From Escherichia phage ECO111 5-P: 64,000 nucleotides of DNA. Made by a program: the position numbers and the translations under genes. The notes under the pieces were generated by a model. The model searched no databases, was not told the DNA's origin, and worked only from the letters and a program-made list of their open reading frames with translations. The stretch lies in sequence record OR844765; one strand, given 5' to 3'. Below, one piece after another: positions 48,239 to 48,610 of the stretch. The number at the start of each line of letters is the position of its first letter. Position 1 is the stretch's first letter.

Positions 48239-48339
48239 GAAGCCGGGTCGCTACCGGCAAGTCGTCGGACTGATGTTCCCTGAGTAAGGACTGGTCTTAA
48301 TAAATCTTTACGATTTGTTAATATCCCCTTACATCACAG

Positions 48340-48585
48340 CAGAAACGGCGCACAGAATTATCGATTCGAGGAAATATCTTTGCCGTAAGCCGAGTAGCGT
48401 TTTTGACGGAACGTTCGGATATGGTCGAGATATGGCCTTTTAAAAATATTGAGTAGCGTCAACTACTTAATAACCGGGTTCAAATCCCGGCGTTTCGTAC
48501 AAACACTTGCCTTAGCAGGTGGAACCCCGACAAGGTTGCCGCAAGGCTTAGCCCCTTCCGAAAGGTTGGGGCTTTTTGGTATCTA
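48340..48585 (+). ncRNA. Candidate stable structured RNA(s) with tRNA-like T-arm (possible counterpart of T4 species 1/2 RNAs)
   Basis: ~360 nt without ORF downstream of tRNAs; canonical T-arm CCGGG-TTCAAAT-CCCGG at ~48473-48489, several hairpins, terminator-like hairpin plus T-run at ~48550-48580; no complete cloverleaf could be built by hand. Confidence 0.3.
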
Positions 48586-48610
48586 GGGCATAAAAATATT
48601 TCATAAAGAT

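Follow-up and report, generated by a model that had tools for sequence, protein, structure and literature searches.

The window analysed here is a stretch of 64,000 nucleotides (nt) from Escherichia phage ECO111 5-P (sequence record OR844765), a T4-like myovirus, and the element in question is a segment at 48239-48610, downstream of two tRNA genes, that lacks an open reading frame (ORF). Judged by sequence comparison, this ORF-free stretch holds the phage's copies of rnaD and rnaC, two small stable RNAs that have been familiar in T4 since the 1970s, and the feature is to that extent already known. The best blastn match to 48200-48660 is the Mosigvirus phage NBG1 (97.6% identity), and 812 of the 50,697 phage records searched with blastn match the flagged segment. 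In RB3 the matched segment is annotated as rnaC and rnaD; in T4 (NC_000866) rnaD (species 2 RNA, 71053-71171) and rnaC (species 1 RNA, 70908-71046) are annotated directly after tRNA-Arg. The sequence-only reading had offered a stable RNA of the T4 species 1/2 type as the first of three guesses, and this guess was right: at 93-99% identity the segment aligns with rnaD and rnaC as annotated in T4 and RB3, and the tRNA cluster, rnaD, rnaC, the terminator and an e.8-like gene follow one another in the same order.

The boundaries of the two RNAs in this phage (Table 1) were mapped from the T4/RB3 annotation by alignment and leave a spacer of 6 nt between them. On the same strand, rnaC lies 3' of tRNA-Met, tRNA-Arg and rnaD and 5' of the operon terminator, and homology runs on through a 50-nt trailer and the terminator, ending just past the U-run. 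The rnaC copy is 98.7% identical over 150 nt to those of T4 and RB3, and 683 of 750 records have an rnaC with 95% identity or more; rnaD matches 734 phage records at identities from 76% to 100%. Both segments are far more structured than expected by chance, with RNAfold z-scores of -3.56 (rnaD) and -4.43 (rnaC).

The individual motifs described from the letters alone are all present and can now be placed. The near-perfect T-arm CCGGG-TTCAAAT-CCCGG at 48474-48490 belongs to rnaC; its core, GGTTCRAATCC, occurs once in the window against 0.06 occurrences expected by chance. The hairpin GCCGG-GTCGCTA-CCGGC at 48242-48258 begins 4 nt past the TAA (48236-48238) of the ORF at 47894-48238, and the GAACGTTC palindrome at 48409-48416 is simply the 3' strand of the rnaC hairpin that we call Ha. 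The terminator-like hairpin with its T-run is found at 48550-48577. The claim that the stretch is free of ORFs also holds, as it contains only ORFs of 37-45 amino acids (aa) with TTG or GTG starts, and so does the failure to fold a complete cloverleaf: ARAGORN calls tRNA-Met and tRNA-Arg alone, and Infernal with Rfam returns only these two upstream tRNAs at the gathering threshold, the segment 48426-48498 scoring 13.9 bits against a cut-off of 29.

Table 1. Coordinates of the RNA elements and neighbouring features in the window
Feature	Position	Strand	Description and basis
T4 middle-promoter-like site	47065-47092	+	MotA box aTTTGCTTTA, 12-nt spacer, -10 TATTAT; read by eye
tRNA-Met(CAU)	47155-47229	+	ARAGORN; Rfam tRNA model 62 bits
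tRNA-Arg(UCU)	47258-47334	+	ARAGORN; Rfam tRNA model 62 bits
ORF with MUG113/T5orf172 domain	47353-47886	+	Pfam E = 1e-8
ORF without Pfam match	47894-48238	+	ORF list, Pfam
rnaD (species 2 RNA) homologue	48235-48354, ~120 nt	+	alignment to annotated T4/RB3 rnaD
rnaD hairpin P1	48242-48258	+	5-bp stem GCCGG/CCGGC, 7-nt loop GUCGCUA
rnaD variable arm	48284-48332	+	base helix GUAAGG/CCUUAC around AU-rich hairpin
rnaC (species 1 RNA) homologue	48361-48499, 139 nt	+	U + CGAUUCG ... CGUUUCG + UA; T4 annotation transfer
rnaC acceptor stem, 7 bp	48362-48368 CGAUUCG / 48491-48497 CGUUUCG	+	two central U.U mismatches
AGG/CCU helix closing central domain	48369-48371 / 48436-48438	+	invariant; RNAfold prediction only
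Central domain	48375-48432	+	long helix, then CCG/CGG, then hairpin Ha
Long helix	48375-48384 / 48423-48432	+	double changes in 5/9 pairs; 96% of cells paired
CCG/CGG helix	48390-48392 / 48416-48418	+	
Hairpin Ha	48396-48415	+	stem 48396-48402/48409-48415; loop UUGACG 48403-48408
Hairpin Hb	48448-48471	+	stem 48448-48456/48463-48471; loop CGUCAA 48457-48462
rnaC T-arm	48474-48490	+	CCGGG/UUCAAAU/CCCGG; abuts acceptor 3' strand 48491-48497, as in tRNA
Conserved 3' trailer	48500-48549	+	hairpin GGAACC-CCGACAA-GGUUgCC at 48521-48540
Predicted intrinsic terminator	48550-48577	+	AGCCCC-UU-CC-GAAA-GG-UU-GGGGCU then UUUUU

The fold of rnaC was obtained by reading an alignment of 21 distinct homologues from at least 10 phage genera (Tequatro-, Mosig-, Gapriver-, Karam-, Kanagawa-, Moon-, Kagamiyama-, Teguna-, Gelderland- and Marfavirus, together with PEi20-like phages) and was then counted on those sequences. 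Because the fold derives from the sequences on which it is counted, compensatory events carry more weight than paired percentages. In the model 92.5% of cells are paired versus 81.3% in shuffles, a level reached by none of 500 shuffles; double changes fall on 19 pairs versus 11.4 expected, and slid controls are 32-48% paired. Within the T4-type subset, the full model of eight helices reaches 95% pairing and has 18 compensatory pairs. The central domain differs in about half of the homologues, which yet keep hairpin Ha and its loop. RNAfold recovers the same nested helices from the rnaC of the window alone (-50.2 kcal/mol), and every helix of the model can form in the window sequence. A covariance model built without the Tequatro-, Mosig- and Gaprivervirus sequences finds the site at 48361-48503 with 143.9 bits (E = 4e-33), and its next-best match in the window is tRNA-Met at 15.6 bits. 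The sequence-only reading had counted the lack of a covariance-model hit among its grounds for dismissal, which proves unsafe: Rfam is silent on this region because it has no family for rnaC or rnaD.

The helices of rnaC differ in how much covariation they display. In the acceptor stem the third pair is G-C in 15 sequences and A-U in six, the flanking pairs are invariant, and the two U.U mismatches present in 19 of the 21 are replaced by Watson-Crick U-A and C-G pairs in the Tegunavirus-type sequences. Compensatory changes occur in all five common stem pairs of Ha, in which every cell is paired (100%), and double changes in all nine stem pairs of hairpin Hb. The T-arm helix is 99% paired, with double changes in two pairs.

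Of particular interest are the 6-nt loops of Ha and Hb, which are exact reverse complements of each other. The helix that they would form is 100% paired in all 21 sequences, even where the loops themselves have changed: to UUGAUG/CAUCAA in the Tegunavirus fHe-Yen9-01 and a related IMG/VR contig, and to UUGGCG/CGCCAA in Marfavirus. The two compensatory changes are independent of each other, fall at different positions and belong to two lineages, and this co-variation therefore indicates a conserved, predicted kissing loop between the two hairpins. An exact 9-nt direct repeat, GAGTAGCGT, is found at 48392-48400 and 48451-48459, the 5' strands of Ha and Hb, and suggests that one kissing hairpin arose by duplication of the other.

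A host origin was considered and rejected. There was no match in blastn searches of 5,426 complete Escherichia coli genomes, and a set of 185,579 species-representative genomes contained no exact match to the rnaC pattern. When IMG/VR and metagenome contigs were scanned with patterns that left the kissing loops free, no new loop variants emerged, and all copies were of the Marfavirus, Karamvirus, Moonvirus, Tegunavirus and PEi20 types already in the set. The two RNAs are separable modules, as rnaC occurs without rnaD in many other genera, and neither RNA has a protein gene as its constant neighbour. In IME08 (Dhakavirus; L011 1499-1700) rnaD is fused straight to the trailer and terminator, and rnaC is precisely absent.

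The genomic setting of rnaC elsewhere is that of a tRNA. The rnaC acceptor stem is preceded, at a distance of 6-10 nt, by the end of a tRNA in Moon, Entb_43, EcS1, Melville, VPA32, CW742 and Ursula, and in all of these phages except Ursula the next tRNA begins 2-8 nt past the ...GUACAA tail; in several other genera rnaC thus fills a tRNA slot, with tRNA genes on either side. After the discriminator U the tail is ACA in T4-type sequences, UCA in Tegunavirus and CCA in Marfavirus. Where T4 does not encode the CCA of a tRNA, the precursor is known to undergo trimming and repair (PMC11143913). With its acceptor stem stacked on a T-arm, rnaC is tRNA-derived in shape but is no tRNA. The suggestion of a degenerate tRNA, also made from the letters alone, therefore stands in part: the shape is there, with acceptor stem and T-arm kept, but decay is not, because rnaC is under strong purifying selection and changes by compensation.

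Several tRNA-like assignments were tried and rejected. A standard tRNA or transfer-messenger RNA (tmRNA) finds no place here, as ARAGORN and Rfam (in gathering and E-value modes) give only the two upstream tRNAs plus sub-threshold noise (isrK at 16 bits on the minus strand, tRNA at 13.9 bits). The acceptor pairing CGAGAUA/CGUUUCG chosen by the Rfam tRNA alignment has no covariation support and does no better than shuffles. The same is true of ACGGAAC/GUUUCGU, the acceptor of a tRNA-Lys in phage vB_EcoM_G4507 (MK327946.1; L040 351-444), which shows no compensatory change and is no better than shuffles. In that phage the A-run of rnaC has lost one base, and because of this deletion ARAGORN calls a 94-nt tRNA-Lys(UUU) inside rnaC, where the GenBank record is annotated likewise. 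In addition, many records, for example F48, Marfa and the neighbours of NBG1, carry a 'hypothetical protein' coding sequence (CDS) over rnaC or rnaD. Such tRNA-Lys and CDS labels are systematic mis-annotations.

For rnaD, 12 distinct sequences were compared. The first 44 and last 20 nt are almost invariant and near-identical to those of T4, RB3 and RB59, and the middle arm occurs in three unrelated versions: the T4 type, to which the window belongs, the T2 type and the IME08 type. The minimum free energy (MFE) of the rnaD fold is -38.6 kcal/mol. The closing pair of hairpin P1 covaries (AU in seven sequences, GC in three, GU in two), and in the base helix of the variable arm the pairs 56/104, 57/103 and 58/102 are kept through double changes. 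The 3' end reads ...GCACAGAA in the window, and the CCA-like end of T4 and RB3 is not conserved. A tRNA-like reading of rnaD was considered and rejected: although P1 combines a stem of 5 bp with a loop of 7 nt, acceptor stem and T-arm are both lacking, and the CCA-like end is not conserved.

Evidence that the structure of rnaD matters comes from a published adaptation experiment. Lines of phage BW-1 adapted to strain ECOR34 acquired a single convergent single-nucleotide polymorphism (SNP), placed in rnaD by the authors, and the virulence index rose from 0.17 to 0.98 with this change (PMC12685909). In our alignment the SNP maps to nt 75 of the T2-type rnaD, in the arm equivalent to the variable arm of the window. 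Read on the RNA strand, A is replaced by G, and CACAG-UUUUA-CUAUG becomes ...CUGUG; a C-G pair is thereby restored, and the rnaD sequence of T2, AugustSocin and GEP001 reappears. The helix-restoring change is indirect evidence for a host-dependent function of the rnaD structure.

Two further observations concern the ends of rnaD. The only site that a terminator scan reports in 46900-48800 is the P1 hairpin read on the minus strand (48258-48242) and followed by TTCTTATTTT; it is probably a by-product of the plus-strand hairpin. The invariant 3' tail GAAACGGCG (48342-48350) is complementary at eight of nine positions to CGGCGUUUC (48488-48496) at the 3' end of rnaC, which spans the end of the T-stem and the 3' strand of the acceptor. 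The GAAACG/CGUUUC pairing that the two RNAs could form is more regular than the rnaC acceptor stem with its two U.U mismatches, and both segments are invariant.

Downstream of rnaC, the trailer is near-invariant among 13 T4-type sequences and is retained in IME08, where rnaC is missing. Its hairpin is present in the MFE fold, and the overall z-score is weak (-1.36); a third structured RNA at 48500-48549 was accordingly rejected, the z-score being weak and the variation too small. The hairpin at 48550-48577 is, on its sequence features, the predicted intrinsic terminator of the tRNA/rnaD/rnaC operon. Its stem consists of six outer and two inner G-C-rich pairs around a UU/UU internal mismatch and is capped by a GAAA loop; changes in it compensate, with GGCCC/GGGCC in IME08 and GA/UU in T4 (G.U and A-U pairs). 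Owing to the internal mismatch, this hairpin escaped the simple terminator scan. The region past the terminator is the promoter and ribosome-binding site of the ORF at 48669-48974 and lies outside the RNA element. It includes a sequence resembling a T4 early promoter at 48611-48639 (GTTTAC, 17 nt, TAGTAT, then AGAC), and a similar one, ...GATACTATAGAC, is found at about 48990-49015 ahead of the next small genes.

Upstream, the site at 47065-47092 is a putative T4 middle promoter, going by the consensus of such promoters. It overlaps the stop codon of the ORF at 46560-47075 and precedes tRNA-Met. The tRNA cluster is reduced, with two tRNAs in this phage versus eight in T4. Both ORFs between tRNA-Arg and rnaD are insertions relative to T4, where the gap is 1 nt. 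NBG1 carries the second of them only, the ORF with the MUG113/T5orf172 domain, a domain related to GIY-YIG nucleases, being missing there. T2-type phages also have an ORF at this junction, and the boundary looks like an insertion hot spot. Because the two ORFs separate tRNA-Arg from rnaD, a stop codon coincides with the 5' end of the RNA: that of the second ORF falls inside the conserved UAAGAA start of rnaD. In T4 itself, a middle promoter immediately 5' of the tRNA cluster drives its transcription, species I and II included; the two species lie within a tRNA precursor of about 1.75 kb, and termination occurs after the species I gene (PMC2330249).

The best explanation of these data, to which we give a probability of about 0.9, is that 48235-48577 is the distal end of a tRNA operon, comprising rnaD, rnaC, a trailer hairpin and a terminator, from which the RNAs would be released in a tRNA-like manner. 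Both would be co-transcribed with tRNA-Met, tRNA-Arg and the two inserted ORFs from the middle promoter near 47065-47092. The placement of rnaC in a tRNA slot and its acceptor/T-arm minihelix make maturation by the tRNA machinery the natural expectation: rnaC would be excised like a tRNA, with RNase P cutting at the 5' side of the acceptor stem and the ...G-UACAA tail being trimmed at the 3' side, and rnaD would be released from the same precursor.

What the RNAs do after release is a more tentative matter. In place of the D and anticodon arms rnaC has a domain of about 60 nt and a hairpin, whose 6-nt loops lie in the co-varying kissing helix. Since the equivalent of the anticodon arm is predicted to be locked in this helix, rnaC would be unable to decode, and action through its shape is therefore proposed. 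It may be a stable tRNA mimic that takes no part in decoding and instead binds or titrates some protein by which the acceptor/T-arm half is recognised, candidate partners being processing, modification or defence factors, and rnaD may be a structured RNA whose integrity matters in a manner that depends on the host strain. We offer this functional proposal as possible, at well under even odds. Somewhat more speculative is the view that the two are RNA effectors of host takeover or counter-defence, which we consider doubtful. The locked rnaC would then be a tRNA-derived decoy showing only its acceptor/T-arm face to a host tRNA-binding enzyme or a tRNA-directed defence nuclease. As a second decoy, or as a structured partner of the first, rnaD would decide success on particular E. 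coli strains through the integrity of its helix, as the selection of a helix-restoring SNP on ECOR34 suggests.

A number of points weigh against this picture. The rnaD and rnaC ends used for the window are transferred from the T4 annotation by sequence alignment. Counting the rnaC fold on its own source sequences inflates the paired fraction, and the modelled AGG/CCU helix and most of rnaD are invariant and hence beyond the support of covariation. RNase P cleavage of rnaC is proposed from its shape and gene position, and rnaC is unlike a normal tRNA substrate in that 19 of 21 homologues have U.U mismatches in the acceptor and the T4 RNA is annotated as ending ...GUA, not CCA. A decoy or mimic function is conjecture. 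T4 deletion mutants that lack the whole tRNA region also grow on laboratory strains. In T4, RNAC and RNAD have been detected by northern blot and classed as late, with function unknown (PMC9697503), and PMC3014915 likewise gives their function as unknown; accounts of this kind include reviews and a 2022 omics paper. In the literature searched, no function has been assigned to either RNA and no kissing-loop model has been published; parts of the rnaC fold may have been drawn before, for example in the original sequencing papers of the 1970s or in Miller et al. 2003.

Two alternatives deny the segment any role as functional RNA, and both can be regarded as effectively excluded. A decayed or pseudo tRNA, that is, a functionless relic of a larger T4-like tRNA cluster that has lost its D and anticodon arms, would explain why T-arm and acceptor stem are present and the cloverleaf is absent, why two tRNAs are left here of the eight in T4, and why ARAGORN takes the G4507 variant with its one-base deletion for a 94-nt tRNA-Lys(UUU). 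Such a relic would hardly keep an identity of 95% or more in hundreds of phages when the middle of the adjacent rnaD is replaced outright, nor would every variable stem change by compensation and the loops stay complementary in 21 of 21 sequences; the tRNA-Lys and Rfam-chosen acceptor pairings do no better than shuffles, and a stable species is made in T4 (PMC9697503). We consider this reading very improbable, and that of small protein-coding genes marginally more so. ORFs of 37-45 aa do exist at 48174-48287, 48315-48443 and 48449-48586, and CDS features cover the homologous segment in many records, such as F48 and Marfa; however, these ORFs start with TTG or GTG and have no Shine-Dalgarno context, indels of 1 and 2 nt among the homologues (alignment columns 58, 74 and 83-84) shift their frames, substitutions preserve the pairs of RNA helices, and the curators of T4 and RB3 annotate the segments as RNAs.

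The remaining alternatives accept functional RNAs and differ in what these do. If rnaD, rnaC or both were base-pairing regulatory small RNAs (sRNAs), antisense to phage or host mRNAs or to each other, sequence-specific recognition would fit the near-invariant ends of rnaD (first 44 and last 20 nt) around a swapped middle, and the 8/9 match of GAAACGGCG with CGGCGUUUC would fit as well; the RNAs have loosely been termed 'small regulatory RNAs' (PMC9697503). No target is known, however, T4 had no functionally characterised trans-acting sRNA as of PMC3014915, and nearly all conserved nucleotides of rnaC are engaged in intramolecular helices, leaving little free seed. The complementarity between the two RNAs lies at invariant positions, out of reach of covariation, and many phages have rnaC without rnaD whereas IME08 has rnaD without rnaC. 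On balance we think such regulation unlikely. Less probable again is a scaffold for processing or stability, which would order the cleavage of the tRNA precursor or protect its 3' end and have no role after release. Order-dependent maturation of T4 tRNAs (PMC11143913), the conserved trailer and the position of these RNAs as the last elements before the terminator in T4-type phages speak for it, but rnaC lies mid-array among tRNAs, not at the 3' end, in Moon and in Karamvirus, Kagamiyamavirus and Gelderlandvirus phages. A spacer needs neither a conserved kissing loop nor a domain of 60 nt, the released RNAs accumulate as stable species (PMC9697503), and a single helix-restoring SNP in rnaD changed virulence on one host strain.

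As rnaC and rnaD are a textbook feature of T4, their presence in a T4-like window is expected, and the rnaC fold is a modest addition to a known feature. To our knowledge, the two RNAs have gone without an assigned function for about 50 years. In most of some 800 phage genomes they are unannotated or mis-annotated, as hypothetical proteins or even as tRNA-Lys. What our analysis adds is the kissing-loop fold, the tRNA-slot placement, the absence from Rfam, the extent of mis-annotation and the helix-restoring reading of the BW-1 SNP; of these, the fold, the slot placement and the SNP reading provide handles for experiments and annotation. Should the counter-defence proposal be true, the rnaC family, which spans at least 10 genera and has no Rfam entry, would represent a new class of tRNA mimics in phages.

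The closest known system is T4 itself, whose rnaC and rnaD are 98.7% and about 87-93% identical to those of the window and share with them order, neighbours, trailer and terminator. They differ in some details: the two ORFs between tRNA-Arg and rnaD are present in the window phage and absent from T4; rnaD ends ...GCACCA in T4 and RB3 and ...GCACAGAA in the window; one T-loop position is A in the window and G in T4; and the UU/UU internal mismatch of the terminator is replaced by G.U and A-U pairs in T4. With canonical tRNA (RF00005), rnaC shares a 7-bp acceptor stem contiguous with a 5-bp T-stem, a UUCRAAU T-loop, four helices at one junction and the tRNA-slot placement, and tRNA-Met is the second-best match of the rnaC model. 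Unlike a tRNA, rnaC is 139 nt long, has neither a D-arm nor a 7-nt anticodon loop, and carries in place of the anticodon arm a 9-bp hairpin whose loop is part of the predicted kissing helix; its acceptor has two U.U mismatches, its T4-type copies encode no CCA, and its region scores 13.9 bits versus the 29-bit cut-off.

The reuse of the acceptor/T-arm half on a non-canonical body has precedents in the tRNA-like domain of tmRNA, the 3' tRNA-like structures of plant viruses and the bacterial YrlA/Y-RNA modules, and such domains hold their shape by a pseudoknot or another tertiary lock. For the rnaC region there is no tmRNA call by ARAGORN and no Rfam match to these families. In contrast to tmRNA, rnaC lacks a tag ORF and the G3.U70 pair, having A-U or G-C as the third pair of its acceptor; it stands alone as a small RNA and is not a 3' untranslated region (UTR) as in the plant viruses, and its termini form an acceptor stem rather than the Ro-binding stem of YrlA/Y-RNA. 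With no expected relationship in sequence, rnaC also resembles the RNase P-processed M3 RNA induced by phi80 (Bothwell, Stark and Altman 1976, cited in PMC11143913), another small stable phage RNA of unknown function that offers host processing enzymes a tRNA-like substrate.

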